Positions 17,301 through 61,965 of a DNA stretch of 64,000 bases are shown piece by piece. The DNA is taken from NCBI GenBank assembly GCA_035541455.1, contig DATKNH010000013.1:4780-68779 (forward strand). The letters run 5' to 3'. The stretch is from Syntrophorhabdales bacterium. Lineage in GTDB: Bacteria; Desulfobacterota; Syntrophorhabdia; Syntrophorhabdales; WCHB1-27. Each line of letters opens with the position of its first letter. The stretch's first letter is position 1. Position numbers and translations under genes: made by a program. A model generated the notes under the pieces. The model made no database searches, had not been told where the DNA came from, and worked only from the letters and a program-made list of their open reading frames with translations.

Positions 17301-17339
17301 GAGCGACCATGTCTAGGCGTGTGTACGATAGGTCAGAAA

Positions 17340-37111: not shown

Positions 37112-37171
37112 CGAAGAAGCGGACCGGTCTGTTAAGTGTTGTGCAGCCTATTGAACCCGCCCGCTTCTTCG
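37112..37171. terminator. Bidirectional terminator-like inverted repeat between convergent genes
   Basis: CGAAGAAGCGG (37112-37122) is perfectly complementary to CCGCTTCTTCG (37161-37171), with a 38-nt loop. Confidence 0.5.
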
Positions 37172-37198: not shown

Positions 37199-38221
37199 CT
37201 AGTGCGACTTTAGATACTCGAGGCAAAACTTAAGGACTTCATCGCCGGGAAGTCCTTTTGCCTTCATGTTATTCGCGTACTCATCCAGCAGGGGCCTTAC
37301 CTGGGCAGCCCATCGCGCGTCTTCCTCTTTTGAGAGGGCTATGATTTTGCTACCCCGCGCCTGTACCAGATCCATGGCTTCTTTGTCTATCTCATCCCAT
37401 GCCTTGCCCTCTTTCTCGATCCACTCCTCGTTGATCTTCTCGATTATTTTCTGATCCACAGGAGAGATGGAATTCCACTTCGCCTTGTTCATGACGACAA
37501 AATGTGCAGAGGTGTAAGCCGCCCCGTAATCCAGCGTATGGCTGCTGACGACTTCTGCCAGCTTCCATCCTTTCATCGCCTCAAAAGGACAAAGAATGGC
37601 ATCTGCGACGCCTTTGGAGAGGGCGTCGTATGACTCACCCATTGGCATGCCGACAGGCGCGCCCCCAAGAGCCAGAGCAATGTTCGCTGCTACACCTTGA
37701 GATCTGATCTTGAGACCTTTGACATCTTCGAGCTTCATGACCGGTTTCTTGCTGTGAAGGAGACCCGGGCCGTGGCTGTAAAAATAGAGGACCTTCGTCT
37801 CATCCCATTCCTTAGGCTTAAACTTGTTGTAGAATGCATTGGTCATGTGCGTTGCCTGCGTGGCGCTCTTGTAACCGAGAGGGAGACCGACAACCTCGGT
37901 GAGCGGAAACTTTCCTCTGGTATAGGCCGCATCAGCGAGACCGATGTCGGCGATGCCCTTAACCAAGCTGTCGTATGTCTGCACGGCAGGCGTAAGCGTG
38001 TTGTTGGGGTACACCGTTACCTTCACCCGTCCATTGGTCCTCTTTTCAACCTCCTTACACCAGTCATTGACTACCTGACTCTGCCGGTGCGGAGCCGGAA
38101 ACATGGTCGAATAGCGGAGCGTAATGGTTTTTTCTTCGGCTGCGCCTCCCTGACTAGGGATGAGGCAGATAAGAAAAGCCAGCATGATAAGACCGATGCC
38201 AACAACAGAAAACTTTTTCAT
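37199..38221 (-). CDS. dctP: TRAP transporter substrate-binding protein, DctP family (divergent member)
   Basis: 340 aa with a signal peptide. TLRYSTMFPAPHRQSQVVNDWCKEVEKRTNGRVKVTVYPNNTL is DctP-like. AAGGAGG RBS. Confidence 0.8.
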   Translation of the reverse strand: MKKFSVVGIGLIMLAFLICLIPSQGGAAEEKTITLRYSTMFPAPHRQSQVVNDWCKEVEKRTNGRVKVTVYPNNTLTPAVQTYDSLVKGIADIGLADAAYTRGKFPLTEVVGLPLGYKSATQATHMTNAFYNKFKPKEWDETKVLYFYSHGPGLLHSKKPVMKLEDVKGLKIRSQGVAANIALALGGAPVGMPMGESYDALSKGVADAILCPFEAMKGWKLAEVVSSHTLDYGAAYTSAHFVVMNKAKWNSISPVDQKIIEKINEEWIEKEGKAWDEIDKEAMDLVQARGSKIIALSKEEDARWAAQVRPLLDEYANNMKAKGLPGDEVLKFCLEYLKSH

Positions 38222-38247
38222 AACAATTCCTCCTTCGTAGTGAATAC

Positions 38248-38373
38248 AGGTTAAGGATAGAACAAGGTGAAGGCAGAAGCAGGCAGAGGAAAAAACGAAA
38301 TAAAGGTTGAGACAAAGCGTACACCACTTTCGTTTTTATCTTAACCTTCGCTTCAGCCTTTACCTCAACCTGC
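38248..38373. repeat. Intercistronic hairpin repeat, copy E2
   Basis: Left arm AGGTTAAGGATAGAACAAGGTGAAGGCAGAAGC pairs with right arm CGCTTCAGCCTTTACCTCAACCT. An inner AAAAACGAAA / TTTCGTTTTT pair is present. Shares 10-mers with E1 (ACCTCAACCT, TTTCGTTTTT) and words with E3 (AGGTTAAGG, AGGTGAAGGC). Confidence 0.75.
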
Positions 38374-38397
38374 TTTATCTTTTTCCTGTTTTCTGTC

Positions 38398-39792
38398 TTA
38401 GACCAGGTCCTCCGGATTTGGAATAAACTTCTTCAGATCTATCCGTTTCATTACATCCTCAGGTATAGCTGCCACAGGGGGCAGATCCTTGCGGAACGGC
38501 TTTGCGGTCGCGTCTATGCCCACTTTTGTCACGACAGCCTCTTGCGCTGACGACAGATCAAGGTCCGTACCGAGCACGCCCGGCAGGATCATTACGTCCC
38601 TGTCTGCCTGCACCCTTGTGGCGAGCGCCCAGGTCATTTGGGCACCATTGTCCAGGTCGATGTCGGTATCAACGCAGACAACGTACTTGAGGTACAGGTC
38701 ATTGGCAAATGCCGCAAGGATAGCCTGTTTTGGCTGCCCCGCATGTTTCTTATCGATTTGAATAAACCCGTACCACCAACCTGCTGCCGCGATGAATTTG
38801 AATTTCTTTACGTCGGGTACGGCCTCTTTAATTTTGCGGTTCATAAAGGAATGTTGCGGGATACGGCCCATCAGCATACCCTTGCTCGGCCAGGCTCCCA
38901 TGTCGTGCACGATCGGGTTCTTCCTATGGGTTATCGCTGTGATCTTTACAGGGTGGCGCATGGCCACCTGGTGGTACTTGGTGAAATCACCCCACGGGCC
39001 TTCCTGCTCCCGGACACCCGGGGGGATGACGCCTTCTATGATGATCTCGGCACGTGCGGGCACAAGTACGTCGCTTGTCTCGCATCTCACCACCTCAAGG
39101 GGCTCTCCCATCAGGCTTCCCGCAATGTCAAATTCTGAAGGTGGATGGCTCACACGGCTCTGAAAAGCGGTAGCCCACGCAGGATGAAGCCCTATGGCAA
39201 ATGCGATAGGCATCGGCTCGTTGCGTTCCATGTAATCATTATAGATGTGCCAGAAATGACGACCGGGCGTGATGTGAGTTACACCGAGGTGCGGCTTTTT
39301 TACCATGAAGCGGTAGTGAGAGCAATGGGGAGCATTTATCTTTCTATCCATCACTATGCCCACCGCCCTTGTGAGATAAGGCGCTTCGCCCTTGTGATGA
39401 GTGATAAAAGGGAAACGCGTCATATCCGCCTTTTTGCCCGTGAGTACAACATCCCTGCAAGGAGCATCTTCTTTCTTGATCTCCTTTGCGGGATACTTAT
39501 TCAGCCGGATTGCCTCCTCTTCCTTCTCGCCGTAAAAGTCTTCAACTCTTTGCGGAGGGATACCAAGGGCGAGGCTGTACTTGGTGGCGCTGGTCTCGGT
39601 ATTACATACGACAGGCGTGCTGTACCCTTTCACCTTCTCGAAGAGAACCATGGGGTATTTGCCCATAAGGTCCAGTTTCTTTACTATTGCGGTGATCTCA
39701 TACTTGGGATCAACCTCCCGCGTGACCCTCACGAACTCCTGCGGCAGCTCTCTTTCGCAATCCGCCATGAACGTCCTTAAATCTCTCGCCAT
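38398..39792 (-). CDS. UbiD-family (prFMN-dependent) decarboxylase, second distant paralog
   Basis: About 464 aa from MARDLRTFMADCE (AGGAGG RBS). UbiD-like N-terminus ...YPMVLFEKVKGY and family-typical length. Confidence 0.85.
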   Translation of the reverse strand: MARDLRTFMADCERELPQEFVRVTREVDPKYEITAIVKKLDLMGKYPMVLFEKVKGYSTPVVCNTETSATKYSLALGIPPQRVEDFYGEKEEEAIRLNKYPAKEIKKEDAPCRDVVLTGKKADMTRFPFITHHKGEAPYLTRAVGIVMDRKINAPHCSHYRFMVKKPHLGVTHITPGRHFWHIYNDYMERNEPMPIAFAIGLHPAWATAFQSRVSHPPSEFDIAGSLMGEPLEVVRCETSDVLVPARAEIIIEGVIPPGVREQEGPWGDFTKYHQVAMRHPVKITAITHRKNPIVHDMGAWPSKGMLMGRIPQHSFMNRKIKEAVPDVKKFKFIAAAGWWYGFIQIDKKHAGQPKQAILAAFANDLYLKYVVCVDTDIDLDNGAQMTWALATRVQADRDVMILPGVLGTDLDLSSAQEAVVTKVGIDATAKPFRKDLPPVAAIPEDVMKRIDLKKFIPNPEDLV

Positions 39793-39833
39793 TAATAAGC
39801 CCTCCTTAAGGAACACATTTCACGCTAGAGTAA

Positions 39834-40811
39834 CTACTTCTTCCAAGCGCCGATTTCTTTCAGATATTTTTCCGCTCCCGGGTGAAAAGGAACAGGTGTG
39901 GCCTTCGTCATATTCTCAATTGTAAAATCACCTGTTGTCGAAGCGTGGATCGCATAGTAGTCCTGCCGGTGTTCCCAGAGATTTTTCAGGAATCGATATA
40001 CAAGATCTTCACTCACGTCAGCATGCGTGAAGATGCTGGTGGCAAATCCGTAGACCGGCGTATCCTGGTCCATTCCTTTGTATGATTTTGCTTTGATGAT
40101 CCTCTTGTAATAGTAAGGGTGTTCCGGAAGTATCTTGTTAAATGCCTGTTCATCCACCGGTACCACGCGTGCGGGCGTAAGCTGTGAAAGCTCCATGTAG
40201 GAGGGCATCGGATAAGCTCCTCCAAGAAAGCCACCGTCCAGGCTCCCGTTCTGTATGCCCTCGACTACTTCTTTGAAGACATAGTAGTACGGTTTGAAAT
40301 CGTTTTTTGTCACACCATGCGCTTCAAAAAAAAGAAGAGCGCTTGTGGAGACAGTGCTGCCCGGCCCTCCGATGCCTATGCGCTTGCCTTTGGCATCTGC
40401 AAAGGATTTGATGGGGCCCCTGGCAGGTACAGCAAAGTACTGGTCCGATCCGTTGATAAAACATATCGCCCGCAATGTTGAGAAGGGCTTACCCGCGTAT
40501 TCGCCAAGCCCCTTATACGCACGATAGCCGTCAGGCGTGCCGAAAAGAGCGAATGCCGGTTTTTTGCCTGCCTCCCTCTGCATCATGCGGCGGACCATCT
40601 CCATGGTTCCTGTGGCTGCCTCATGAACGAAGTTGACATCGGTCATGTATTTATTGGTAACTGCCGCCACCCCGGCGCCGAGCACGTAGACTGTTCCCCC
40701 TGAGGGCGGCGTATATAAAGGAGCAAGTTCCGCAGCTCGGGATGTGCTCGTTGCCAGTACCGTGACTGCGAATATTAAGCTCACTAAGGTGATCAGGATG
40801 ATATCTTTCAT
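39834..40811 (-). CDS. TAXI-family TRAP solute receptor
   Basis: Start at MKDIILI (GGGAGGA RBS) with a signal peptide. GGTVYVLGAGVAAVTNKY...RIGIGGPGSTVSTSALLFFEAHGV is the TAXI/NMT1-like pattern. Confidence 0.75.
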   Translation of the reverse strand: MKDIILITLVSLIFAVTVLATSTSRAAELAPLYTPPSGGTVYVLGAGVAAVTNKYMTDVNFVHEAATGTMEMVRRMMQREAGKKPAFALFGTPDGYRAYKGLGEYAGKPFSTLRAICFINGSDQYFAVPARGPIKSFADAKGKRIGIGGPGSTVSTSALLFFEAHGVTKNDFKPYYYVFKEVVEGIQNGSLDGGFLGGAYPMPSYMELSQLTPARVVPVDEQAFNKILPEHPYYYKRIIKAKSYKGMDQDTPVYGFATSIFTHADVSEDLVYRFLKNLWEHRQDYYAIHASTTGDFTIENMTKATPVPFHPGAEKYLKEIGAWKK

Positions 40812-40905
40812 TTTGATCCTCCCACGCTCTTGCTGGTCGCTTGTCTCCTGCAAGATGCTCAAGGCTGTTCACCGCTTACCCCTGACTGCTCACTTGCTGC
40901 TGCTC

Positions 40906-42201
40906 TTAGGCCACTCCCGGTATGATATTGCCCCCTGAGGGGAAGATCGCAACATCAGCCTGCGGCATCTTGTTCGCAGCCATATCCACTGCCTCGGGGA
41001 GCGTGCGAGCGTGAGTGAACTTCATCATCCGTACGGTCTCTGTCGGCAGCCCTTCGGTGACGTGTATCACGTCAAACTTCTCTGCGAGTTCCTTGAAGAA
41101 GACCACCTGCATAATATACGAGATGCCAAACGAGGTTAGCTGGTCGGGAATCTTCCCGGCGATCAACCTGCGGTGAAAATCAGTGGCGGTTTCAGAACTC
41201 GCCATCTCCTGGACGAGAGGCAGTATCGGACCGGCCTCCTTTTGAGGGGCGACCCAGATGATGATGCCTCCCGAACGGGTGCAGTAGCCGGCCATGGTCA
41301 GGGCCTTGGTAGCCTGCACGGCGATTTCCAGGGGATACGCCGACGTGATCGTCACATCAGCGACCTTGGCAAGAGGAACGAAGTAAAGGGACGCCGCGAA
41401 CTTGGCAGCCTCTCTGTGCTCAGCCACCGTTTCTCCTGCGAACGCGCGAATGATTTCTTTCCTGTCGTTGATGACGAGATCGAGCTTGAACGCGAGCCGT
41501 GCCAGTCGTCCTGCGTCGGTGATCTCTTCGTAAAAAGGATTGCCGTCCATCACGTTTACTTTGGCATATCGATGACGAATCCAGGCGAAATGATGATCTG
41601 CTACTGCCCGATAGGAACAGACGCCGGGCATTATAATCTTGTTTCCGCCACCGAAGCCTGCAGTGGGATGCGGCATACACTCACCAACGCCCACGATCAG
41701 GTCAGCAAAGGCCACGTGAGGGTTGATCTCGATCAGAGCGCCCCTGTGGGTTCGACCGATGACAACGTTTTGTGTGGAGTAGGGATCGTGGGAGACGAGC
41801 CGTTCACCCAACCGTTTTGCGACTTCCTCGCCCGCCTTTTTCTTCAGCTGTTCATATGATAGGACCGGGTGTGTTCCCAGGGCACATACCGCAGTCATGC
41901 GCGAATCAGGAATCCCCGCGCGGTTAAGGCGGTTCATCAATTCAGGCAGCGCCAGGTGTGCGGGTGTCGGCCGCTGAAGATCGTCGAACAGCAGCACGAC
42001 ATCCATCCCGGGCTTAGCAAGCTCCTCCAGCCTTGGCCCTCCTACGGGATTGTCGAGCGCCCTCTTGATTTCGGCTACAGGATCGGCTACGCCTGGAACT
42101 GTCGGCTTGTCCTGATCAGAGAGTACTTTCCACCCCGGGGGTAAAGAGAAGCACATCTGCTTTCCCTCGCAGATGACGTAACGTTCACGTGCCTCGGCCA
42201 T
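40906..42201 (-). CDS. LarA-family (nickel-pincer nucleotide-dependent) 2-hydroxyacid racemase/epimerase homolog
   Basis: 431 aa. ALGTHP plus CMPHPTAGFGGGNKIIMPG correspond to the LarA catalytic His and the H..GF.GG.K cofactor-tethering Lys motif (DUF2088 domain). Confidence 0.75.
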   Translation of the reverse strand: MAEARERYVICEGKQMCFSLPPGWKVLSDQDKPTVPGVADPVAEIKRALDNPVGGPRLEELAKPGMDVVLLFDDLQRPTPAHLALPELMNRLNRAGIPDSRMTAVCALGTHPVLSYEQLKKKAGEEVAKRLGERLVSHDPYSTQNVVIGRTHRGALIEINPHVAFADLIVGVGECMPHPTAGFGGGNKIIMPGVCSYRAVADHHFAWIRHRYAKVNVMDGNPFYEEITDAGRLARLAFKLDLVINDRKEIIRAFAGETVAEHREAAKFAASLYFVPLAKVADVTITSAYPLEIAVQATKALTMAGYCTRSGGIIIWVAPQKEAGPILPLVQEMASSETATDFHRRLIAGKIPDQLTSFGISYIMQVVFFKELAEKFDVIHVTEGLPTETVRMMKFTHARTLPEAVDMAANKMPQADVAIFPSGGNIIPGVA

Positions 42202-42204
42202 CTA

Positions 42205-43209
42205 TCACCTCGTCTTGGTAAGTAATTTCTTCAACTCGGGAGTTGTCTTGGGAGCTTTTTCCATCAACTCTGCCCATCCCGCATCATACGCTGTTTTCAG
42301 GAATTTTTCGCTTTCAGCAGGGGAGAGTTGGATGACCTCGATGCCTTCCTTCTGCAGTATAGGGCGTTCCTTCTTCTTCAGATCGTCGAAGAGTGCGACT
42401 GCTTTTTTCTCGCCTTCCACTGCAGCCTCATTCAGGATATCCTGAAGCTTCTTCGGCAAACCATTGAATGTCTTCTGGTTGATGAGGACGGGATTGGGCA
42501 CGTTGTAGAACCCCGGCTCGACGACGTATTTCGTTACCTTGTCCCAGCCCCAGTCGCGGATCCCGACAGAGGGCCAGCAATAACCGTCCACAACATGGCG
42601 TTCCAGTGCCGCGTATACTTCTGTCGGTGGTATCACCACCGGGTTCCCGCCCAGGGTCTTTATTGCCTGCAGCTGGTTTGCAGATACCCTGATGTTCAAC
42701 CCTTTTAAATCGGCGCTCTTGATCGGCTTAACCAGATAAAGGTGAAATTTGAGATCGAGTCCGAGCCTCGCCTGGTAACGAAGCCCTAGCCTCTGTTCAT
42801 GGAGCGTGTTAAAGTACGCCCAGGCTCCGCTCGCCCTTTCCTCCATGGGTGTCATCGTGGAAAGCTTCATTGCATCCGCTTCGGGGAGCACCGAGAGATA
42901 GTAGGCGTTTGTAGTGAAGACCATATCCACCATGCCGCGCTGCGCAGCTGCCACCTGCTCGTTTGTCTTCACAGCTTCCGGGCCGCCGATGTACTGAATT
43001 TTCAACTCACCCGGCGCCTTCTTCGCTACAAGCTGTTCGACCAGGTCGGTGAAAATGAAGAAAGCCTGGTTATCTGTGGCTGTTTTTGGCCAGGCGGTCA
43101 CTGCCTTGAGGGTGACAGATTCAGCAGCCCGAGCAACAGGGGTGTGGACGGTAAATACAGAAGCCATGAAAATAACTGTGCAGAAAAGAATGAATGATCC
43201 CTTTTTCAT
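42205..43209 (-). CDS. dctP: TRAP substrate-binding protein, DctP family (paralog group member 1)
   Basis: 334 aa with a signal peptide. Close paralog of 43290-44294 and 57166-58158 (shared blocks GGPEAVK, LGGNPVV, VVDGY). Confidence 0.85.
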   Translation of the reverse strand: MKKGSFILFCTVIFMASVFTVHTPVARAAESVTLKAVTAWPKTATDNQAFFIFTDLVEQLVAKKAPGELKIQYIGGPEAVKTNEQVAAAQRGMVDMVFTTNAYYLSVLPEADAMKLSTMTPMEERASGAWAYFNTLHEQRLGLRYQARLGLDLKFHLYLVKPIKSADLKGLNIRVSANQLQAIKTLGGNPVVIPPTEVYAALERHVVDGYCWPSVGIRDWGWDKVTKYVVEPGFYNVPNPVLINQKTFNGLPKKLQDILNEAAVEGEKKAVALFDDLKKKERPILQKEGIEVIQLSPAESEKFLKTAYDAGWAELMEKAPKTTPELKKLLTKTR

Positions 43210-43289
43210 CGGTGGCCTCCCTTCAAGTTTCTGTGCAGCCCGTATTTGTCTGAGCCGGACCGCCTTTACTCTACCGTGATATACCTGAC

Positions 43290-44294
43290 TTACTTTCCGG
43301 TCTTCTTTGTCAGTAACTTTTGCAGTTCAGGGCCTGTTTTCGGGTTGTTCTTTATCACGTCTTTCCAGCCCTCGTCGTAGGCTATTTTGAGGAATTTCTC
43401 CTTCTCGGCCGGAGGAAGCTCGATCACCTGGATACCGGCCTTTTTCAGAAGAGGGATCTCTTTCTTGCCTTCCTCCTCATAATAGGCGACAGTCTTTCTT
43501 TCCGACTCCATGGCGGCCTCTGTGAGCACATCCTTGAATTTCTTAGGCAGCGCATTCCATGCTTTCAGATTCATGATGAGAGGATGCGGTCCTGAATAAA
43601 ATCCCGTATCGACGATGTACTTGGTCTGCTTCTCCCATCCCCACTCCCGGATCGTCACGAGGACAAAGCAATATCCATCTACCACTTTGCGCTCGAGCGC
43701 CTGGTACACGTCGCTCGGTGGAATGACCACTGGATTACCGCCAAGGCCCTTGATGACCTGAAGATACATGGGAGAGACTCGAATGTTGAACCCTTTAAGG
43801 TCGGCCGTCTTTATCGGTCGTGTCAGGTAAAGGTAAAACGGCGCATCTATACCGAGTCTACCCAGAAGGTAAAGGCCTTTCTTTTCGTGCAAGTCATTGA
43901 AGTACGCCCAGGCTCCGTTTGCCCTCTCCTCCCATGGTTTGAAGTCCGAGAGCTTCATAGCATCGACCTCGGGAACTTCAGAGACATAGTACGCGTTGGT
44001 CGTATGGACGATATCAACCATGCCGGTCTGAGCAGCGTGCGCCTGGTCCTGGATCTTGACCGCTTCGGGACCACCGACGAGGTTCAGTTTCAGCTCGCCG
44101 GGATATTTCTTCGCCACCTGTTGCTCGACGCTGTCCATGAAATAAAAAAGTGATTTGTTGTCGGTGGTGTTTTTTGGCCAGGCAGTGACGACCTTCAGCG
44201 TGATTGTCTGTGCGTTGGCGATACCGTGTATCGTACAAGCAAAAAAGAATAAGGCAACGACTGCAGCAAAAAGAAAGCCTGCTTTCTGCTTCAT
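43290..44294 (-). CDS. dctP: TRAP substrate-binding protein, DctP family (paralog group member 2)
   Basis: 334 aa. Collinear similarity with the two other members along the full length. Confidence 0.85.
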   Translation of the reverse strand: MKQKAGFLFAAVVALFFFACTIHGIANAQTITLKVVTAWPKNTTDNKSLFYFMDSVEQQVAKKYPGELKLNLVGGPEAVKIQDQAHAAQTGMVDIVHTTNAYYVSEVPEVDAMKLSDFKPWEERANGAWAYFNDLHEKKGLYLLGRLGIDAPFYLYLTRPIKTADLKGFNIRVSPMYLQVIKGLGGNPVVIPPSDVYQALERKVVDGYCFVLVTIREWGWEKQTKYIVDTGFYSGPHPLIMNLKAWNALPKKFKDVLTEAAMESERKTVAYYEEEGKKEIPLLKKAGIQVIELPPAEKEKFLKIAYDEGWKDVIKNNPKTGPELQKLLTKKTGK

Positions 44295-44364
44295 AATTCC
44301 TCCTCATTTATTGTTTTCTGCCTCACTAGACCCGTGTCCCTTGACCCCTGATCCTATTTTTCAG

Positions 44365-45687
44365 TTACTTCACCATACCCATAAGTGCCGGAACCACAGT
44401 TGCTATTGATGGTACGGCGAGCACGATCCCAATGCAGAGCAAATCTATTATGACGTAAGGGGTTACCGCCCTCCATATATCTCCCATCGTTACGTCGGGA
44501 GGCGCCACGCCTTTCATCACGAAGAGCGTAACACCAAAGGGTGGGGTAATCAAGCCTGTCTCAAGGGCGATCAGCATCATCACGCCGAACCAAACCGTGT
44601 TGAACCCGAGCGCAGTGACCACGGGCATGTAGATAGGAATGGTGATCATCATGATCGCCACCGTTTCCATGAAACAGCCCATGATGAGCACGACCACGAG
44701 CATACCGACGAGTATTATCAACGGGTGAATGCTGAGGCCGGTGATATAGCCGGTCATACCGGCAGCGGCACCGGTGAAGGCCAGTATCTCGCCATACGTG
44801 CTCGACACGATGATGATCATGAATATCATGGACGTCACTTTCACCGTGCCCATGACCGACTTCTTCATTATGTCCCACGTGAGGCGTCTGTAACATATGG
44901 CAAGGATGAAGGAGCCCAATGTTCCTGTTGCCGCAGCTTCGGTCGGCGTTGCCACACCTAGGAAGATAAGGCCTATGACCATGAAGATGATGAAGCCAAG
45001 AGGCAGCAGATAGACGAAAGTGACCCGTATTTTTTCCTTCAACGGCACGTGTGCGACTTCATACATAGGCGCTTCATTGGGGAAGAGATGGCACCATCCC
45101 AGGACATATACAAAATAGAGGGATGACATGATAATGCCCGGCAATATGCCGGCGATCAGGAGCTGCCCCACATCGATATTCGCGAGGCTCGCAAGCACCA
45201 CCGTGAGGGCGTTAGGAGGGATAAGGGCGTCTACCGTTCCAACTCCCATGAGTGGGCCGAGGCTCATGTTCTTGCTGTACCCCCTTTTCAGCATATCGGG
45301 AAGCAGGATTGTACCGAGGAGTGCGCATGTGGCAATCGTGGAACCGGAGAGTGCTCCTATGATCACTCCCATGATGACTGCAAGGATCGAGAGCCTGCCT
45401 TTGAGCTTGCCGAGCCATTTGTCAAGGACATTGACTGCATCGAGTCCCATGCCCGAGTGAAAGATAAGCTCTCCCATGAGAATGAAGAAGGGCACGGGGA
45501 GCAGGGTAAATGTGGTGATGGAGGTGAAAACACCCGTGACCACGCCTATCAGGCCCGGTATCCCGCCGAGGAAGAAGTAGGCGGCCACCATGTTGACAAT
45601 GAGAAAGGCAAAGGCTATGGGCACGCCTGTGAGGAGCAGGAATACCATGCCTCCGAAGAGTATACATATGGTCGTATACCATTCCAT
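44365..45687 (-). CDS. dctM: TRAP transporter large permease
   Basis: 440 aa, highly hydrophobic. Typical DctM length and N-terminus (MEWYTTICILFGGMVFLLLTGVPIAFAF). Confidence 0.9.
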   Translation of the reverse strand: MEWYTTICILFGGMVFLLLTGVPIAFAFLIVNMVAAYFFLGGIPGLIGVVTGVFTSITTFTLLPVPFFILMGELIFHSGMGLDAVNVLDKWLGKLKGRLSILAVIMGVIIGALSGSTIATCALLGTILLPDMLKRGYSKNMSLGPLMGVGTVDALIPPNALTVVLASLANIDVGQLLIAGILPGIIMSSLYFVYVLGWCHLFPNEAPMYEVAHVPLKEKIRVTFVYLLPLGFIIFMVIGLIFLGVATPTEAAATGTLGSFILAICYRRLTWDIMKKSVMGTVKVTSMIFMIIIVSSTYGEILAFTGAAAGMTGYITGLSIHPLIILVGMLVVVLIMGCFMETVAIMMITIPIYMPVVTALGFNTVWFGVMMLIALETGLITPPFGVTLFVMKGVAPPDVTMGDIWRAVTPYVIIDLLCIGIVLAVPSIATVVPALMGMVK

Positions 45688-45690
45688 GGG

Positions 45691-46185
45691 CTACCTCCCC
45701 GCCTTGATTTCGGCAACCCTGCTCCAGGCCATTCGGAAGAACTGGATGGTAAGGAGGATGCTCCCCACAGGGATAATGACAAAGACGGTCCATTTCGGGA
45801 TGGTAACGGCGCGTACGTCAGTGATGCCGCGCTGGATGCACTCTATCATGTAGGTGATGCTGAAATAGACCATGACGATACAGGCAACTCCGGAGATTAT
45901 GAACATGGTGCAGTCAAGGTAACCTCTTGTCTTGTCATTGAGGTGGCTGTATATGATGTCCGTGGTGATGTGACCGCCCTCTCTGAGAAGCCACGTGGTT
46001 CCGAGGAAGACGATCCATAGTAATGCATATTCGGTCGTCTGCATGATCCATATTGTCGTGCGCGTGAATAAGAACCGCATGCCTATCGTGTAGCAGACGG
46101 CAGCACAAATGAAGACCAGTATCACACCCGCAAGCGCAGCCATTATATCCAGCAATCTGTCGAACCCTTTCCAGAAACCCGCCAT
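45691..46185 (-). CDS. dctQ: TRAP transporter small permease
   Basis: 164 aa with 4 TM segments, immediately upstream of dctM. Confidence 0.85.
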   Translation of the reverse strand: MAGFWKGFDRLLDIMAALAGVILVFICAAVCYTIGMRFLFTRTTIWIMQTTEYALLWIVFLGTTWLLREGGHITTDIIYSHLNDKTRGYLDCTMFIISGVACIVMVYFSITYMIECIQRGITDVRAVTIPKWTVFVIIPVGSILLTIQFFRMAWSRVAEIKAGR

Positions 46186-46239
46186 AGTCAGTTCCCCCTG
46201 CGTCGTCTTAAAATAACCGGACCTTCATCCGGTGCCTCA

Positions 46240-46935
46240 TCACGTCTGTCTTCGTTTGATCTTTTCCTCCCCATGCTCGCGGAACGCGTAAAACAGTATG
46301 TCTTTCTTTGATTGCTCGAGGTGATTCCTGATGGCCTTTGCAGCTGTCTCCACATCGCCTGTCACGATCGCTGCCAGTATCTCCTTGTGGCCGTTTATTC
46401 CCCGGATAACATTGTCCGGCGCATAGATGCTCTGGATCCTGTAACGCACCATGTGGCGCCTCAGGGTCTGTGCCAGTTCCAGGAGTCTCCTGCTTCCGCT
46501 CAGTCCAGCGATAATTTCATGGAACTGGGCATCGAGGTCCACGTATGCTTTCACCTCGCCCTGCATCACCCGCTGCTCGGCTGTCGCAATGTTTTTCTTG
46601 AGCTCCTTGACTAATCTCGCGTGGGCCTTTTCCATAGCCCATCGAACAGCCAGGGTTTCGATGACTGTTCTGATCTCGCATATTTCCTCGACTTCCTGGT
46701 CGCTCACCGTATTTACTTTATAGCCGACACGGGGTATCGATTCCAGAAGGCCTTCCATTTCGAGGGTGTGAAGAGCCTCTCTGACGGGTGTCCTCGATGT
46801 GCCTATATCTTTTGCGATCTTCGCTTCAATGAGGCGCTCTTGCGGACCTATCTCACCGCTGAGGATCTGCTCCCTCAAATACGCATGGACCTTCTTGCGG
46901 ATGGTGGTGCTATCGGTGATGATGAGTTTTTTCAT
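46240..46935 (-). CDS. GntR-family (FadR/FCD subfamily) transcriptional regulator
   Basis: wHTH region RLIEAKIAKDIGTSRTPVREALHTLEMEGLLESIPRVGYKV plus a helical FCD-like C-terminus. Start is either the ATG at 46935 or the TTG at 46944. Confidence 0.85.
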   Translation of the reverse strand: MKKLIITDSTTIRKKVHAYLREQILSGEIGPQERLIEAKIAKDIGTSRTPVREALHTLEMEGLLESIPRVGYKVNTVSDQEVEEICEIRTVIETLAVRWAMEKAHARLVKELKKNIATAEQRVMQGEVKAYVDLDAQFHEIIAGLSGSRRLLELAQTLRRHMVRYRIQSIYAPDNVIRGINGHKEILAAIVTGDVETAAKAIRNHLEQSKKDILFYAFREHGEEKIKRRQT

Positions 46936-46964
46936 AAGAACCAAGCTTGAAGCTTACGGCTCGA

Positions 46965-47075
46965 GGCAAAAGGTTAAGGGCCAAAGGTGAAGGCCAAAGG
47001 CCAAAAGTTAAACGCTAACAGTTACAAGTTCTGTATGTTTCTCCCGTTAGCCGTGGGCCGTCAGCCGTTAACCGT
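46965..47075. repeat. Intergenic word-repeat element, copy E3 (weaker hairpin)
   Basis: Left arm AGGTTAAGGGCCAAAGGTGAAGGCCAAAGGCC shares AGGTTAAGG and AGGTGAAGGC, in the same order, with E2. Right arm CCGTTAGCCGTGGGCCGTCAGCCGTTAACCG is only partly complementary (about 12/18 over the best stretch). Confidence 0.55.
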
Positions 47076-47079: not shown

Positions 47080-47985
47080 TCAACAGATTCCTCTTTCCTG
47101 CGCTACCAGGTGTTCCCAGTCTTCATCCACCTGCTTCTGTAGCCTTGCCACATCCTCATTGGTAAAGTGGCGGTATCTGCCCTGAATCTTCGTGTATTCG
47201 CTCACCGGCAGACCTTGAGGCTGGTGCGTAATCCGGTATTCCCTTCCATCTATGATCTCGTAGAGCGGGAAGATCTTTGTCTCGACAGCAAGCATTGCTG
47301 ATTTCGCGGAGAGTTCTTCAGGCATTCTCCAGCCCGTGGGGCAGGGTGTCAGCGTATGAATGAAGCGTGTGCCCTTGATTCTTTTCGCCTTTTCCACCTT
47401 GGCCATGAGATCGTGAGGATGACCGAAAGACGCGGTGGCTGCGTAAGGCATGCGATGCGCGGCAATGATCTGCATGAACTTCTTTTTCTTGCCGTGCCTG
47501 CCGCCGGGTGTGGTCATGGTCCAGACGTTCTGGGGGGTCGACGAGCTGGACTGGATACCTGTGTTCATGTACGCCTCGTTATCGAGGCAGATATAGATGA
47601 AGTTGTCATCCCGGTCTGCTGCGCCCGACAGAGATTGGAGCCCTATGTCGAACGTGCCGCCATCGCCTGCAAATGCAACAGGAATAATATCATCTCGTCC
47701 CTGGACTTTGAGCGCGTTGGCTATGCCGGCTGCTGTGGGTGCGGCGATCTCGAACGCCGAATGAAAGCAGGGCACCTCAAAGACACTGTTGGGGTAATTT
47801 GCACTGATGGGACCCACGCATGAAGGGATCATGACCACGATTGTATTCTTCCCCAACACCTTCATGACGAGCCGAATAGTGCTGGCGAGGCCGCACCCCG
47901 GGCAGGCCATGTGGCCTGACCGCATATATTCCATCTCCGTGCCCATGTCTAGTGTTTCTGTAGCCATGTTTCTCTCCTTACCCAT
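47080..47985 (-). CDS. 2-oxoacid:ferredoxin oxidoreductase beta (TPP-binding) subunit
   Basis: CPGCG near the N-terminus, then AFAGDGGTFDIGLQSLSGAADRDDNFIYICLDNEAYMNTGIQSSSSTP (TPP motif). The exact start is uncertain because it overlaps the alpha-subunit stop. Confidence 0.85.
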   Translation of the reverse strand: MGKERNMATETLDMGTEMEYMRSGHMACPGCGLASTIRLVMKVLGKNTIVVMIPSCVGPISANYPNSVFEVPCFHSAFEIAAPTAAGIANALKVQGRDDIIPVAFAGDGGTFDIGLQSLSGAADRDDNFIYICLDNEAYMNTGIQSSSSTPQNVWTMTTPGGRHGKKKKFMQIIAAHRMPYAATASFGHPHDLMAKVEKAKRIKGTRFIHTLTPCPTGWRMPEELSAKSAMLAVETKIFPLYEIIDGREYRITHQPQGLPVSEYTKIQGRYRHFTNEDVARLQKQVDEDWEHLVAQERGIC

Positions 47986-49118
47986 ACTGGTAAATCGGTC
48001 GGTTTGTCATGCTGTAGAGCTTCGAGCACCATGTCTTCAATCATCTCCGGTGAGACGTCTGCGCCGCAGATGCCCGCAATGTAGCCAGTCACGGTAGGTC
48101 TTTTTACGAGCGGATAGAGTGCCGACTTTAATTCGTGGCAGAATATGCCTTCCTTGCCAAGGGATATATTCCGGTCGAGCACAGCTACCTTCGGTACATT
48201 CTTCAAAGCCCCCTGCACTTCTTCTGTAGGGAAGGGCCTGAAGGCTTTTATCTTGAGGAGTCCCGCTTTGCAGCCTTTGCTTCGCAAGGACTCTATCGCT
48301 ACACGTGCAGTGCTCGTCATGGCGCCGCTCGTCACCAGGACGATTTCGGCATCGTCAGTATTCACAGCCTCCACCACACCGTACCCCCTCCCCACGATCT
48401 GGCGGTATTCCCTGTTTGCCTCCTCAATGACAGGCCGCGTCTTCTCCATATCCCTGAAGCTTGTCTCCCGATAGACCATGTACTGCTCCGGGCTCACCAC
48501 GTTTGAAATGAACGCGGGGTCTTCAATGTTAAATCTGGTGGGAATGCTGAAGGGCGGCAGAAAGGAATCCACTGCCTCCTGGCTCGGTAACTCAATTGGT
48601 TCCATGAAGTGAGATGTGAAAAAGCCGTCGATTGCCACCATGACGGGGAAGAGCGTCTGTTCTGCTATCTTATATGCTTGGATGACCGTGTCGAGCGCTT
48701 CCTGGGCGTCCTCGCAGTAGAACTGCAGCCACCCGGTATCGCGCTGGGAGAGGCTGTCCGATTGATCGCTGCCGAACGCCCAGGGAACAGCGACTACACG
48801 ATTCACATTGCACATGACAATAGGCACTCTGTTTCCAGAAGCAAAGTGGAGCATCTCATGCATGAGGGCGAGCCCCTGAGAAGCTGTGGCGGTAAAGGTG
48901 CGCACGCCCGTGAGGGAGGCGGCAATGCAGGCTGCCATAGCAGAATGTTCCGATTCTGTCCGCATCATCACGCCGGTCAACTTTCCTTCAAGCTCCATAT
49001 CAGAAAGCTTTTCGTAAATAGGCGTTTGCGGGGTGATGGGGTATGCGGCTACCAACTGAACTCGTGCAAGGCGAACGGCTTCAGCCACTGCGTAATTTCC
49101 CTGAAGAAGTTGTTTCAT
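47949..49118 (-). CDS. 2-oxoacid:ferredoxin oxidoreductase alpha subunit
   Basis: Start at MKQLLQGNYAVAEAVRLARVQLVAAYPITPQT. The ATG overlaps the stop of the upstream gene (ATGA at 49115-49118). Confidence 0.85.
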   Translation of the reverse strand: MKQLLQGNYAVAEAVRLARVQLVAAYPITPQTPIYEKLSDMELEGKLTGVMMRTESEHSAMAACIAASLTGVRTFTATASQGLALMHEMLHFASGNRVPIVMCNVNRVVAVPWAFGSDQSDSLSQRDTGWLQFYCEDAQEALDTVIQAYKIAEQTLFPVMVAIDGFFTSHFMEPIELPSQEAVDSFLPPFSIPTRFNIEDPAFISNVVSPEQYMVYRETSFRDMEKTRPVIEEANREYRQIVGRGYGVVEAVNTDDAEIVLVTSGAMTSTARVAIESLRSKGCKAGLLKIKAFRPFPTEEVQGALKNVPKVAVLDRNISLGKEGIFCHELKSALYPLVKRPTVTGYIAGICGADVSPEMIEDMVLEALQHDKPTDLPVWVRRETWLQKH

Positions 49119-50884
49119 GTGCCAGCTCCTGTGGTTGCTCCTATCTCTATCACATTGCGTGGGCAGCTCGTGGCGCAAATGCTGCAACCCTTGCAGTAGT
49201 CCATCTTAACGGTGTAACCTTTTTTGCCTTCCTTCACCAGAGAGATGTCAGGACAGAGCAGGAAGCAAAGATCGCACTCTGTGCATGTCCCACACTTGAA
49301 GCATCGCTCGATTTCGTTCGTCATCTGCGACGGATCAATGCCGCCCGCGACCTCTTTAAAGCTCTTTACCGCTCGCTTCGGCGAGAGCCGGTCAGGCGCC
49401 ATTGCACGTTCTCCGCGAGAGAAACAAAGGGTGTTTATCTTCTCATACGGAACGACTTTCTTGAGATCAATCTGGTAATCTCCCTGATGCATAATACTTT
49501 GGAATGAGAAGGCGGGTTTCTCACCAATTTGATGGCTTTGAAACTCTTGTCCGAAATCGATGCCTTCGATGTAGCAATGTATGGCCAAAGCGCCTGTCTT
49601 TCCGCTCGCAATGGCATCTGCAACGAATGCCTTCGTTCCTGCGCTATCTCCGCCAGCGAATATCCCTTCGATATTCGTTTCCGCGCGTTCAGGAGAAATA
49701 GCGATAACGCCGTTTCTGCCCAAACGAATTCCAACTCCATTTGTGAACTGGAGATCCGGCACCTGTCCTATGGCTCCGATGACGGTATCTGCCGGCAGAT
49801 CGAATTCAGATCCCGGAAGAGGAAGGGGCTGTGCTCTTCCGCTTTCGTCTAGTGCTCCCAATGTCATGCGCATGCACTCGATTTTCGAAAGCCGGGTACC
49901 ATCACCGATCAGCCGTTTCGGCGCAGCAAGGACATCGATCTTTATCCCTTCGCGCTCCACGGCTGCCACGTCTTCGGGGAGAGCCGGCATCTCTTTTTGT
50001 GAGCGGCGGTATATGATGGTCACTTCTTCTGCGCCAAGACGCCGTGCGACCCGCGCACAATCAATGGCCGTGTTGCCGCCTCCTATCACAGCTACTCTCT
50101 TGCCCACAGCTATTTGTTCCCCGAGATTAACACTCCTGAGAAAACCCATGCCTTCCATCACGCCGGGGAGTTCCTCTCCCTCGATGCTCAGGCGCATTCC
50201 CTTATGGGCGCCTGCGGCAATAAAGATGGCCTGGTGCTTGTCTCTAATCTGTTCGAGAGAAATGTCGTTGCCGACGCGAACTCCCGTTGTTATCTGCACG
50301 CCCAATTGCTCTATGTAACCTATCTCCTTGCGCAGGATAGCTTTCGGTAGTCGGTATTCTGGGATGCCATAACGGAGCATGCCCCCTGCTTCAGGCAGAG
50401 CCTCGAAGATTGTGACAGGATAACCAAGTCGCGCCAGATGGTAGGCAGCGCTCAACCCCGCCGGTCCGGAGCCGATTACAGCGACTTTCGCCTTTCTTTT
50501 TTGGACCTGAATTTCCCTCTTTGTGTCGACTTTGCCGTGGTCGGCCAGAAAGCGCTCGAAGCCACGAATGTTGATCGCTTCATCAAATTCTTTCCGGTTG
50601 CAGTCAGATTCGCACGGGTGATAGCAGACCCTCCCGCAGACACCGGGTAGAGGATTATCCTGACGAAAGATGCGTAATGCAGCGTCGTGGTTACCCAGAG
50701 ATGCCTGACTGAATGCACGGGCAATATCATTGCCTATAGGGCATCCTCGCCGGCAGGGCGATGTCTTCTCCGCGTAAAACGGTTTCTTGCTGCTCCAGTG
50801 ACCTGTAAAAAAAACCTCGGTGGTTCCTCTGGAGAAGGGAATTATAGGCTCTATGTCTTTTATCCCTATGGTGCGATGGCTCAT
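49115..50884 (-). CDS. Fusion protein: GltD/NfnB-like NAD(P)H flavoprotein plus C-terminal 2x[4Fe-4S] OFOR delta-subunit-like domain
   Basis: 589 aa. The N-terminus has Cys clusters and VAVIGSGPAGLSAAYHLARLGYPVTIFEALPEAGGMLRYGIPEYRLP (GltD pattern). A second dinucleotide fold is VAVIGGGNTAIDCA. The C-terminus is CFKCGTCTECDLCFLLCP...CKGCSICATSCP. Confidence 0.8.
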   Translation of the reverse strand: MSHRTIGIKDIEPIIPFSRGTTEVFFTGHWSSKKPFYAEKTSPCRRGCPIGNDIARAFSQASLGNHDAALRIFRQDNPLPGVCGRVCYHPCESDCNRKEFDEAINIRGFERFLADHGKVDTKREIQVQKRKAKVAVIGSGPAGLSAAYHLARLGYPVTIFEALPEAGGMLRYGIPEYRLPKAILRKEIGYIEQLGVQITTGVRVGNDISLEQIRDKHQAIFIAAGAHKGMRLSIEGEELPGVMEGMGFLRSVNLGEQIAVGKRVAVIGGGNTAIDCARVARRLGAEEVTIIYRRSQKEMPALPEDVAAVEREGIKIDVLAAPKRLIGDGTRLSKIECMRMTLGALDESGRAQPLPLPGSEFDLPADTVIGAIGQVPDLQFTNGVGIRLGRNGVIAISPERAETNIEGIFAGGDSAGTKAFVADAIASGKTGALAIHCYIEGIDFGQEFQSHQIGEKPAFSFQSIMHQGDYQIDLKKVVPYEKINTLCFSRGERAMAPDRLSPKRAVKSFKEVAGGIDPSQMTNEIERCFKCGTCTECDLCFLLCPDISLVKEGKKGYTVKMDYCKGCSICATSCPRNVIEIGATTGAGT

Positions 50885-50918: not shown

Positions 50919-51461
50919 TCAGTAAAAGAGTTGCGTCAACTCGTAAGCCTTTTTTGCCGCAGCTACGTTGGCCGAAACTTTTGCCGGGACCGACTCCTTA
51001 ATTACTTCTTCCAAAAGATCCATGGGCACCGCGTTGCTGGCTTTTGCATAAGCGCCCAGCATAGCTGTATTGATCGTAGCCCCCAATCCCAGAGACTCAG
51101 AGACGGAGAGTGCGTCGATAAGAGCCAAACGAAACTTCTTCAACGCTTGAAAATCTCTGTCGGTCAGAGCATTGTTTATGAGCAGGAGCCCTCCGGGCTT
51201 AAGCATTGACTCAATCTCTCTTTCGTCCACAAGATCAGGCGCCATGTAAATCATCTGGTCCGGTGCGGTGATCTCGCATTTCAGAAGGATCTTCTTGTCG
51301 TCCACCCTGAGAAAGCTGGCAACCGGGGCGCCTCTGCGTTCGCCGCCGAAAACGGAGAAGCACTGAGGGTACTTCCCCATGGTGAAAAAAACCCTTGCAA
51401 GGATCTGAGACGCGATGACCGCGCCCTGTCCTCCTCTGCCGAAGAACTTTATCTCAATCAT
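50919..51461 (-). CDS. 2-oxoacid:ferredoxin oxidoreductase gamma subunit
   Basis: MIEIKFFGRGGQGAVIASQILARVFFTMGKYPQCFSVFGGERRGAPV is the canonical gamma-subunit N-terminus. Confidence 0.9.
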   Translation of the reverse strand: MIEIKFFGRGGQGAVIASQILARVFFTMGKYPQCFSVFGGERRGAPVASFLRVDDKKILLKCEITAPDQMIYMAPDLVDEREIESMLKPGGLLLINNALTDRDFQALKKFRLALIDALSVSESLGLGATINTAMLGAYAKASNAVPMDLLEEVIKESVPAKVSANVAAAKKAYELTQLFY

Positions 51462-51505
51462 CTGGGCCTCTGCTTTATTTCAAAGAATGGGGGATGTTTA
51501 TTGGG

Positions 51506-51604
51506 ATACTGTACCCCAATAACCGGGGTGTGTCAAGGAAGGCGGAAAGAAACGTCTTTCGCCCTGGCAAAACCTTTTGACACCCGAGCAAAAATACTGT
51601 ACCC
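51506..51604. promoter_or_regulatory. Divergent promoter region with two copies of an 11-mer candidate GntR operator
   Basis: ATACTGTACCC occurs at 51506-51516 and 51594-51604. The first copy is embedded in TTATTGGG-N9-CCCAATAA and overlaps a minus-strand TTGACA-N17-TACAGT. The second follows a plus-strand TTGACA (51577-51582). Confidence 0.5.
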
Positions 51605-51626
51605 TAGATGCGCTACAAGAAAGACA

Positions 51627-52313: not shown

Positions 52314-52867
52314 AAGAGATACGGTTACACGGCAGGGGAGGGCAAGGGGTAGTGATGGGCGCTGAAATGCTGGCATACGCGTTTGTCCTCGAGGGCAAGT
52401 ACGCTTCTTCGTTCCCGACCTTCGGGGCAGAACGCAGAGGAGCGCCTGTGGCGGCTTTTCTTCGCTGCGATGAAAAACCGATAAGGGAGACTCACCAGAT
52501 TTATGATCCCGATTGTATTATGTGCCTGGATCCTTTTATAGGAAGATCGCAAGAGATCTTCAACGGATTGAAAGGGGACGGCATTGCAATTATTAATACC
52601 CCGAAGCTGAAGCTGGAGAAATGGCCTGACGCGCTCAAAATGCTGGGCCTGATTGATGCAACCGCCCTGGCTCTTGATGAGATAGGCAGGGCGATCGTCA
52701 ACACGTGCATGCTCGGCGTGATAGCAAAGGTTACGGGATGGGTAAAGCTGGAATCTGTGATAGCAAGCCTCGACATGAACTTCGAAGGAAAGTTGTTGCA
52801 GAAAAACATAGACCTGGTGAGACGCGGCTACGACAGTGTCGCAATTTCAGTAAGGAGCACCACATGA
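52310..52867 (+). CDS. OFOR gamma subunit; PadE-like (phenylglyoxylate:NAD+ oxidoreductase-type operon)
   Basis: [47 protein letters not shown]. 185 aa. Confidence 0.85.
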   Translation: [185 protein letters not shown]

Positions 52868-54335: not shown

Positions 54336-54341
54336 AGTGAG

Positions 54342-54423: not shown

Positions 54424-54437
54424 AGAGGAGAGATGCT

Positions 54438-55715: not shown

Positions 55716-55728
55716 AAGAGGGCTGAAC

Positions 55729-61782: not shown

Positions 61783-61820
61783 CGCACCCTCCTTTCTTCC
61801 GATGGGCGATCGCTCACTGC

Positions 61821-61950: not shown

Positions 61951-61965
61951 TCTTCCATCTGTCTT

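Follow-up and report, generated by a model that had tools for sequence, protein, structure and literature searches.

A putative catabolic island for 2-hydroxy and 2-oxo acids around a LarA-type nickel-pincer racemase homolog in a Syntrophorhabdales bacterium

The stretch of DNA considered here (the window) covers 64,000 nucleotides (nt) from a Syntrophorhabdales bacterium (GenBank assembly GCA_035541455.1, contig DATKNH010000013.1, positions 4,780 to 68,779). It contains a minus-strand gene string that runs from a four-gene 2-oxoacid:acceptor oxidoreductase, through a GntR-type regulator and a tripartite ATP-independent periplasmic (TRAP) transporter, to a homolog of the nickel-pincer enzyme LarA, a receptor of the TAXI type, a UbiD-family decarboxylase and a further DctP receptor. 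Judged from gene neighbourhoods, the conserved core of this arrangement is the LarA homolog together with the NAD(P)-linked oxidoreductase, the GntR regulator and the TRAP transporter, with UbiD lying outside that core. With confidence that is evenly balanced, the whole is read as a catabolic island for 2-hydroxy and 2-oxo carboxylic acids with a hydrophobic, most likely aromatic, side chain. Its probable role is the uptake of aromatic acids of these two kinds and their conversion to CoA esters, and the candidate substrates would be compounds of the mandelate/phenylglyoxylate type or of the aryl-lactate/aryl-pyruvate type. All of the enzymes come from known families; what is new is their combination and the presence of two uncharacterised subfamilies.

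Central to the island is the LarA homolog, which has both domains of the superfamily, the two catalytic histidines, the lysine that tethers the cofactor, the histidine nickel ligand and the arginine. The GTH and H..GFGGG.K motifs that the initial annotation had picked out are real, appearing as LGTHP and PHPTAGFGGGNK, and alignment to the lactate racemase 5HUQ places the catalytic and cofactor residues. When aligned to Mar2 and lactate racemases, Arg75, His108, His174, Lys184, His200, Gln295 and Lys298 of LarA1 correspond to R77, H111, H178, K188, H203, Q296 and K299 of the window protein, and no cofactor-binding residue is lost. These seven positions are invariant in 13 subfamily members (67-88% identity), while Tyr294 of LarA1 has no counterpart in the window protein. 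The score of the protein falls beneath every NCBIfam equivalog cut-off, reaching 275 bits for the LarAH6 malate racemase, its best match (cut-off 500), 231 for lactate racemase (cut-off 460) and 209 for the LarAH10 model (cut-off 540). A homology search returned 1103 clusters, the best 120 of which are 69-94% identical, and the closest named relative (94%) is from a Syntrophorhabdales metagenome-assembled genome (MAG). The protein is accordingly placed as a predicted nickel-pincer-dependent 2-hydroxyacid racemase of an uncharacterised subfamily.

What might such an enzyme act upon? Specificity in the superfamily has been related to the positions F175, F176, W358 and T359 of LarA1 in a 2024 survey, where F or Y at the 358-equivalent marks the hydrophobic 2-hydroxyacid racemases (PMC11770544). 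The equivalent residues of the window protein are P, T, Y and I in a profile alignment, whose last two become F and G when the protein is aligned pairwise to Mar2. The W358-equivalent is therefore aromatic either way, as Tyr362 (profile) or Phe358 (pairwise), though the alignments disagree in register. The P, T, Y, I set departs from the F, F, W, E/Q pattern of lactate racemases, and the patterns of 2-hydroxyglutarate and gluconate enzymes are likewise absent. At the T359 position, where malate racemases carry a lysine, the aligned residue is Ile or Gly, and a malate racemase identity was rejected on this missing lysine together with the score. The pocket thus appears hydrophobic and weakly fits the rule for hydrophobic 2-hydroxyacid racemases. 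As initially stated, the enzymes for making the two cofactors are not at hand: among window ORFs (open reading frames) of at least 150 aa there is no match for larB, larC or larE, nor for a ubiX-type flavoprotein.

The definition of the core relies on gene neighbourhoods from three sources, namely an exact-protein look-up, a genome scan with the UbiD alignment (18 loci, all MAGs) and a metagenome scan with the LarA alignment (389 relatives, the best 80 being kept). The ORFs of each locus (denoted here by L and a number) were compared with the window proteins, and neighbours were also clustered without prior labels. A subfamily LarA is present in 88 loci, and since many of the contigs are short the ortholog counts are lower bounds. 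Within these 88, GntR is found in at least 45, DctP in at least 41 and DctM in at least 37, with DctQ in at least 26; the oxidoreductase is represented by the flavoprotein in at least 35, alpha in at least 34, beta in at least 33 and gamma in at least 28. The genes of the module are arranged in no fewer than three ways (co-directional, divergent, and oxidoreductase-LarA-DctP), a variety that speaks for selection and not only for common descent. The next commonest neighbour is a molybdopterin-domain protein (Pfam Oxidored_molyb), which lies 3' of LarA in 17 loci of the clade with the divergent arrangement (for instance L096, 1505-2443). In L043 and L102 LarA is the last gene of the unit.

The oxidoreductases adjacent to the string were initially described as of the aryl-2-oxoacid type, a description that may suit one of them. 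The enzyme at the head of the string (oxidoreductase #1) resembles pyruvate (POR) and 2-oxoisovalerate (VOR) oxidoreductases; the flavoprotein at 49115-50884, as judged from its domains, probably passes the electrons on to NAD(P)+. The other enzyme, encoded on the plus strand in a divergent unit, has the five-subunit PadEFGHI architecture complete (52310-57087), with every subunit scoring beneath its equivalog cut-off, and is adjoined by a gene for a further receptor, DctP4. Pad-like oxidoreductases are near LarA in the window, in L019 and in L090.

With regard to uptake, DctQ and DctM are the only TRAP membrane components within the window, and with the DctP receptors they make up a complete DctP-type transporter. 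DctP1 and DctP2 share 59% identity and, with DctP4, have by far their best PDB relative in Bpro_4736 of Polaromonas (4MNC/4MNI), at 178 and 173 bits for DctP1 and DctP2 and 178 bits for DctP4 against 4MNC. A structure model of DctP1 (predicted local distance difference test, pLDDT, 82) matches 4MNC at a template modelling (TM) score of 0.8 and 33% identity; the ligand of 4MNC we take to be benzoylformate, the same compound as phenylglyoxylate, and the position of the DctP4 gene beside the Pad-like enzyme would agree with such a ligand. DctP3 belongs with a different set of structures, 4N6D, 4NAP/4PGN, 7NSW, 7NR2, 7NQG and 5IGA. Among the ligands in the titles of these entries are coumarate, caffeate, ferulate, cinnamate, 4-hydroxyphenylacetate and 'aromatic acid ligands', while the title of the closest structure, 4N6D, names no ligand as far as it was displayed. 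The DctP3 model is poor (pLDDT 51) and just the sequence ranking was used. The solved relatives of the TAXI receptor are distant and include the glutamate-binding protein 1US4. A TAXI-TRAP transporter pairs such a receptor with a fused Q-M permease, and among the window ORFs scanned there is no fused permease, the sole DctM scoring 36 bits against TRAP_fused (cut-off 321). The membrane partner of the TAXI receptor may be encoded elsewhere, or DctQM may be used, or the receptor may act as a sensor. Two loci closely related to the window, L012 (4489-7597) and L015 (4462-7575), have three tandem receptors of the DctP1/DctP2 type where the window has two, and receptor number in the window lineage thus appears to be still changing.

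The UbiD protein (38398-39816) has the three UbiD domains and scores above the TIGR00148 cut-off. Its best PDB match is HmfF (6H6V, 271 bits), to whose HR and EGPFGE motifs its own HYR and EGPWGD align, and the E(D)-R-E catalytic network is in place, with R161, E264 and D269 invariant in 12 UbiD members. The furan specificity of HmfF is reported to depend on an active-site histidine, H296/H297 (as cited in PMC7976604). The position of His296 is occupied by Gly in the window protein (motif AWPSKGM) and throughout the LarA-linked clade, and because this specificity histidine is replaced the automatic JGI name of furandicarboxylate decarboxylase was rejected. The protein is predicted to be a decarboxylase dependent on prenylated flavin mononucleotide (prFMN) and is placed in the HmfF cluster, within a Gly-bearing, LarA-linked clade. 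Its distant relation to the UbiD protein at 1249, as initially described, is confirmed by an identity of 27%. As a side observation, a 139-aa ORF of the LpdD family (3772-4191, minus strand; PF21758, listed as LpdD_chaperone in precomputed tables and as PAC_bac in current Pfam) is 49% identical to the gene directly upstream of the LarA-UbiD pair in L030 (=L016), and it may have relevance to prFMN handling.

The pairing of UbiD with LarA, a salient element of the initial annotation, holds as an adjacency but not as a partnership conserved from the LarA side. In a neighbour-joining tree without support values the UbiDs nearest to that of the window group in a single clade, which carries Gly at the position of the HmfF histidine, and in this clade a subfamily LarA (62-94% identical) stands directly upstream of UbiD in five settings: the window lineage; L033/L036; L008, where an isolated LarA-UbiD pair is followed by a transposase gene; L016; and L019, where the pair is convergent with a Pad-like oxidoreductase. 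The setting in L016 (=L030, 4430-14667) consists of an LpdD-family gene, LarA, UbiD, a hydantoinase A/B-type pair (best matches caprolactamase and acetophenone carboxylase subunits, under the cut-offs), a second distant LarA-like gene, two short-chain dehydrogenases and an ABC receptor. Among Gly-clade loci with enough upstream sequence L018 alone lacks LarA, while L013 and L017 stop at the contig edge. From the LarA side, UbiD is missing in 49 of the 56 loci that have enough sequence downstream. The LarA-UbiD link thus appears real but asymmetric, tight from the side of UbiD and a minority feature from the side of LarA. On a distance tree of LarA (which has no support values) the proteins linked to UbiD do not group together but are interspersed with those that lack it, and the pairing may have originated as one ancestral pair with losses or by repeated recruitment.

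The gene orders form a stepwise series, from LarA-DctP3 (L005, L007), through LarA-UbiD-DctP3 (L033 and L036, with gaps of 85 and 32 nt and without TAXI), to the LarA-TAXI-UbiD-DctP3 order of the window lineage. From this series UbiD, and later TAXI, are taken to be lineage-specific insertions into a pre-existing LarA-DctP junction. A sister UbiD clade (L010, L011, L020, L021; 62-68% identical) carries Tyr, Phe or Leu at the position of the HmfF histidine and is without LarA. Its neighbours include TctCBA or other receptors, family III (Bbs-like) CoA-transferases, a DUF35 protein with a thiolase (BbsB-like at 576 bits, cut-off 750), a three-part biotin carboxylase and CocE-type esterases, the biotin-dependent set of L010 being most like subunits of pyruvate carboxylase or oxaloacetate decarboxylase. 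By its gene content this clade looks like part of a different, likewise undescribed pathway. A methyl-ketone route, considered in view of the hydantoinase-type or biotin carboxylases of L016, L010 and L011 and with a vinyl or ketone product of UbiD, was left as speculation; the hydantoinase-type pair of L016 resembles caprolactamase and acetophenone carboxylase only weakly.

The features of the window are collected in Table 1. The ORF list and the Pfam and NCBIfam scans bear out the nine genes from GntR to DctP3, their order and their minus-strand orientation, as initially listed. The extent of the string does need revision, since it does not start at GntR but is preceded by the four co-directional oxidoreductase genes, from 51461.

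Table 1. Features of the window, with bit scores set against the cut-off of the model concerned
Feature	Position	Strand	Evidence or remark
Gamma subunit, 2-oxoacid:acceptor oxidoreductase #1	50919-51461	-	Pfam POR E=6e-35; TIGR02175 159 bits (cut-off 81); first co-directional gene
GltD/NfnB-like NAD(P)-binding flavoprotein with C-terminal PorD-like 2x[4Fe-4S] domain	49115-50884	-	Pyr_redox_2, Fer4_20; NF009410 552 bits (cut-off 516); PorD_Arch at residues 529-581
Alpha subunit, oxidoreductase #1	47949-49187	-	POR_N, PFOR_II; PorA_Arch best NCBIfam match, 426 bits (cut-off 550); PadG 280
Beta (thiamine-diphosphate) subunit, oxidoreductase #1	47080-47985	-	TPP_enzyme_C; VOR and POR beta models 355 and 341 bits, both under cut-off
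GntR/FCD-family regulator	46240-46944	-	Pfam GntR and FCD domains
DctQ	45691-46185	-	Pfam DctQ
DctM	44365-45687	-	Pfam DctM; TIGR00786 280 bits (cut-off 268)
DctP1	43290-44294	-	Pfam DctP; Bpro_4736-type receptor
DctP2	42205-43209	-	Pfam DctP; Bpro_4736-type receptor
LarA homolog	40906-42201	-	Lar_N (PF09861) E=7e-47; LarA_C (PF21113) E=2e-11
TAXI receptor	39834-40862	-	NMT1_3; TIGR02122 209 bits (cut-off 84)
UbiD	38398-39816	-	PF20695, PF01977 and PF20696; TIGR00148 293 bits (cut-off 245)
UbiD-DctP3 intergenic region	38222-38397	-	Long hairpin then U-run (folding)
DctP3, receptor of the TarP/aromatic-acid clade	37199-38221	-	Pfam DctP E=2e-52; end of string
GntR of divergent unit	51501-52313	+
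PadE-like	52310-52867	+	PadE 198 bits (cut-off 300)
PadF-like ferredoxin	52867-53130	+	87 aa, 2x[4Fe-4S]; too short for ordinary ORF lists
PadG-like	53130-54335	+	PadG 414 bits (cut-off 700)
PadH-like	54438-55715	+	PadH 419 bits (cut-off 475)
PadI-like	55729-57087	+	PadI 409 bits (cut-off 700)
DctP4	57166-58158	+	Last gene of divergent unit
Phenol-activation cluster	7-10486		Phenylphosphate carboxylase beta subunit, delta-type ORFs, phenylphosphate-synthase-like proteins; also a LysR regulator and a UPF0261 protein
Two HAD-like delta-type ORFs	7-537 and 551-1108		Phenol-activation cluster
Phenylphosphate carboxylase beta subunit	1249-2667		678 bits (cut-off 469)
PPDK_N and PEP-utiliser proteins, phenylphosphate-synthase-like	6778-9804		Phenol-activation cluster

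Gene callers give an alternative start at 49118 for the alpha subunit of oxidoreductase #1. Contigs of identical sequence are present in four public metagenome or read-set assemblies, where the calls start TAXI at 40811 and UbiD at 39792. The phenylphosphate synthase/carboxylase cluster in the window, together with the origin of the closest named LarA relative in a Syntrophorhabdales MAG, leads to the host being viewed, from its genes, as an anaerobic degrader of aromatic compounds. Elsewhere in the window, a DUF5752 protein, a trehalose-synthase-like glycosyltransferase and two alpha-amylase-family proteins (13545-20369, plus strand) are unrelated to the island. Beside the Pad/DctP4 unit are a CheB-CheR-PAS fusion protein and a PAS hybrid histidine kinase (58873-63930, minus strand), and in the unrelated locus L007 similar CheB-CheR-PAS and PAS-kinase genes (13785-21290) follow the LarA module at a distance of a few kb.

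Transcription of the string as the single operon of the initial annotation is unlikely. Gaps within the string, as far as UbiD, are 3-94 nt, and a terminator-like hairpin lies at 46233-46216, just 3' of GntR and before DctQ. The 176-nt gap between UbiD and DctP3 contains a hairpin (minimum free energy -52.6 kcal/mol, z = -3.7 against shuffles) followed by a U-run, which may act as a terminator or attenuator; the same gap in L033, L036 and L012 is just 32-51 nt. Because of the hairpins at these two junctions the string probably yields more than one transcript, and the description that suits this evidence best is a co-directional cluster made up of two to four units. There is an inverted repeat at 37112-37171, 3' of DctP3. 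A promoter and terminator scan gave matches no more often than expected from shuffled sequence, and an Rfam search of 36000-58500 gave no match. A candidate for a shared operator, the 11-mer GCCTTCACCTT with CCTTAACCT 4-7 nt later, is found on the minus strand in two intergenic regions only, UbiD-DctP3 (38248-38274) and oxidoreductase-GntR (46971-46994), and was dropped as it is not conserved in related loci.

How could these components work together? Several periplasmic receptors, of the Bpro_4736 type (DctP1, DctP2, DctP4) and the TarP type (DctP3), could feed the one DctQM. The LarA homolog would then racemise the 2-hydroxy acid by way of its nickel-pincer cofactor, making both enantiomers usable, and a dehydrogenase encoded elsewhere, a gap in the module, would oxidise one enantiomer to the 2-oxo acid. 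The thiamine-diphosphate oxidoreductase with its NAD(P)-binding flavoprotein could convert this 2-oxo acid to an acyl-CoA and CO2, toward the benzoyl-CoA route, with the divergent Pad-like enzyme perhaps performing the same reaction on a phenylglyoxylate-like acid. In such a scheme UbiD would be an accessory, acting on a related aromatic acid that is possibly delivered by TAXI or DctP3 and removing its ring or acrylic carboxyl group, and so either making the substrate of the LarA route or handling a sister compound.

The aromatic 2-hydroxy/2-oxo character proposed at the outset is favoured by the likeness of DctP1, DctP2 and DctP4 to Bpro_4736, the relatives of DctP3, the PadEFGHI-like neighbour and its recurrence near LarA in other loci, the hydrophobic positions of the racemase and the aromatic-degrading gene content of the host; the substrates, the dehydrogenase and the role of UbiD are assigned to it by inference. 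The ring-carboxylate decarboxylation step that formed part of the initial annotation found no direct support. Several observations weigh against the proposed pathway as a whole. Oxidoreductase #1 is closer to the pyruvate and 2-oxoisovalerate enzymes than to Pad, and the closest characterised relative of the LarA protein is a malate racemase. The alignment is uncertain around positions 358/359, where different residues are paired, and benzoylformate as the ligand of 4MNC is a tentative assignment. The TAXI receptor is without a cognate permease in the window, and most related loci with sequence enough downstream of LarA have no UbiD. The island has no 2-hydroxyacid dehydrogenase, as was first remarked, and no conserved one is seen among the neighbours across dozens of LarA loci.

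A different explanation for the UbiD gene, unlikely in our estimation, is that UbiD and TAXI are a separate cassette that landed in a LarA-TRAP operon, so that UbiD would act on an unrelated heteroaromatic or unsaturated dicarboxylate, such as furan- or pyridine-dicarboxylate, and would share regulation with LarA without sharing a pathway. The rarity of UbiD from the LarA side, the stepwise series of gene orders, the strong hairpin 3' of UbiD, the transposase gene after the pair in L008 and the sister clade, which keeps company with TctCBA and a Bbs-like CoA-transferase and thiolase in place of LarA, are all in keeping with such a cassette. It is, however, difficult to square with the five contexts in which the nearest UbiD clade lies directly 3' of a subfamily LarA, for five chance insertions beside the same 430-aa gene are implausible. 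Moreover, the pairs of L008, L016 and L019 have neither same-strand TRAP genes nor TAXI, and L018 is the single Gly-clade locus with adequate upstream sequence from which LarA is missing. At the other extreme, and rather improbable, would be a closer union. In it the widespread, uncharacterised LarA subfamily would open an anaerobic 'mandelate-like' pathway, its nickel-pincer racemase feeding the NAD(P)-linked 2-oxoacid oxidoreductase with no dedicated dehydrogenase in the module, and in one clade it would be bound to a new prFMN decarboxylase as an obligate partner. One aromatic substrate would in that case be served by two rare modified cofactors, with the racemase or UbiD perhaps acting directly on an enol or oxo form.

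The chemistry of the substrate can also be read differently. That the island serves aliphatic hydroxy-dicarboxylates (malate, tartrate, citramalate or 2-hydroxyglutarate), with a malate-type LarA, TRAP and TAXI receptors for C4-C5 dicarboxylates and a UbiD for an unsaturated diacid like fumarate, mesaconate or aconitate, is quite improbable. In NCBIfam and the PDB LarA is indeed matched best by malate racemases (LarAH6, 275 bits; Mar2, 6D6Z, 197-223 bits), the glutamate-binding 1US4 is among the relatives of TAXI, and a class I fumarase lies near the related UbiD of L011. Yet the LarA score is far beneath the malate-racemase cut-off, the lysine for the second carboxylate is replaced by Ile or Gly, solved relatives of DctP3 have titles naming aromatic acids, and the oxidoreductases are POR/VOR- or Pad-like rather than 2-oxoglutarate enzymes. 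Very improbable, finally, is a LarA homolog that is not a simple racemase, whose hydride-shuttling cofactor would carry out the missing oxidation or another isomerisation and pass a 2-oxo acid or enol to the oxidoreductase or to UbiD. The lack of a 2-hydroxyacid dehydrogenase in the conserved module and the terminal place of LarA in L043 and L102 would fit this, and other hydride-mediated reactions are conceivable according to the authors of a superfamily study (PMC7583248). Both catalytic histidines are nonetheless kept, as in true racemases, and a dehydrogenase encoded elsewhere is the simpler solution. To our knowledge, no enzyme with the LarA fold catalytically releases an oxo acid, which also counts against it.

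If the racemase-based pathway for aromatic acids is broadly right, it suggests a way in which aromatic hydroxy acids from plants may enter the benzoyl-CoA route in uncultured anaerobes of peat and sediment. The analysis defines a LarA subfamily whose partner set is an oxidoreductase, GntR and TRAP, and which has 389 relatives in the metagenome scan, as well as a UbiD clade that is almost always 3' of a LarA gene. These are targets that can be cloned, for aromatic 2-hydroxy acids possibly racemised by a nickel-dependent enzyme and for a possible new prFMN decarboxylase reaction, and the absence of the dehydrogenase from the conserved module is itself a puzzle. Substrates are known for just a handful of UbiD enzymes. 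They are known, too, for part of the LarA superfamily, whose authors predict functions for about half of the LarA homologs. Two LarA superfamily studies report racemisation of aryl-lactates but not of mandelate; in the 2024 study mandelic acid was purchased and no mandelate racemisation is reported (PMC11770544).

Compared with LarA (5HUQ), Mar2 (6D6Z) and LarAH10, LarAH52 and LarAH66, the window protein shares the two-domain fold, the catalytic histidines, the lysine tether, the histidine nickel ligand and the Arg/Gln/Lys carboxylate site. It may share with the three LarAH enzymes an aromatic W358-equivalent, although the alignments disagree in register. It differs from the characterised enzymes in falling beneath all equivalog cut-offs, in having no equivalent of Tyr294 and in having Pro/Thr for Phe175/Phe176. 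The partner set of 2-oxoacid oxidoreductase, TRAP and UbiD is listed for none of the 25 LarAH groups of the 2020 survey, whose gene-context table has no UbiD and no 2-oxoacid oxidoreductase COGs and gives TRAP genes for one sugar-acid group only. In the literature searched no publication was found that combines UbiD with LarA and lactate racemase, which agrees with the initial view that no pathway combining the two had been described. The window UbiD shares with HmfF (6H6V) the three-domain architecture, the catalytic arginine and the acidic residues, whereas it has Gly at H296/H297, no adjacent HmfG/UbiX gene and a context of LarA and TRAP instead of the hmf genes. DctP3 matches the TarP-type receptors for lignin-derived aromatic acids 7NSW, 7NR2 and 7NQG, whose structures were determined with coumarate, caffeate, ferulate, cinnamate or 4-hydroxyphenylacetate, at 131-144 bits, with an identity of only about 25-29%.

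The plus-strand cluster has the same five-subunit layout as PadEFGHI of denitrifying aromatic degraders, including an NADH-linked epsilon subunit and an Fe-S-extended beta subunit, and the Pad models are its best NCBIfam matches. Its scores are, however, under the cut-offs, and it has no PadBCD or phenylacetate-CoA ligase gene, while the oxidoreductase that co-varies with LarA is of a different, four-gene type with a GltD-like flavoprotein. The closest parallel in overall design may be with the aerobic mandelate pathway, which proceeds through mandelate racemase, mandelate dehydrogenase and benzoylformate decarboxylase. The island would differ in that its racemase is of the nickel-pincer type rather than of the enolase superfamily, that decarboxylation is oxidative and CoA-dependent, and that the dehydrogenase lies outside the island. 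The proposed logic would nevertheless be the same, with a substrate that is racemised, oxidised and then decarboxylated as the 2-oxo acid.

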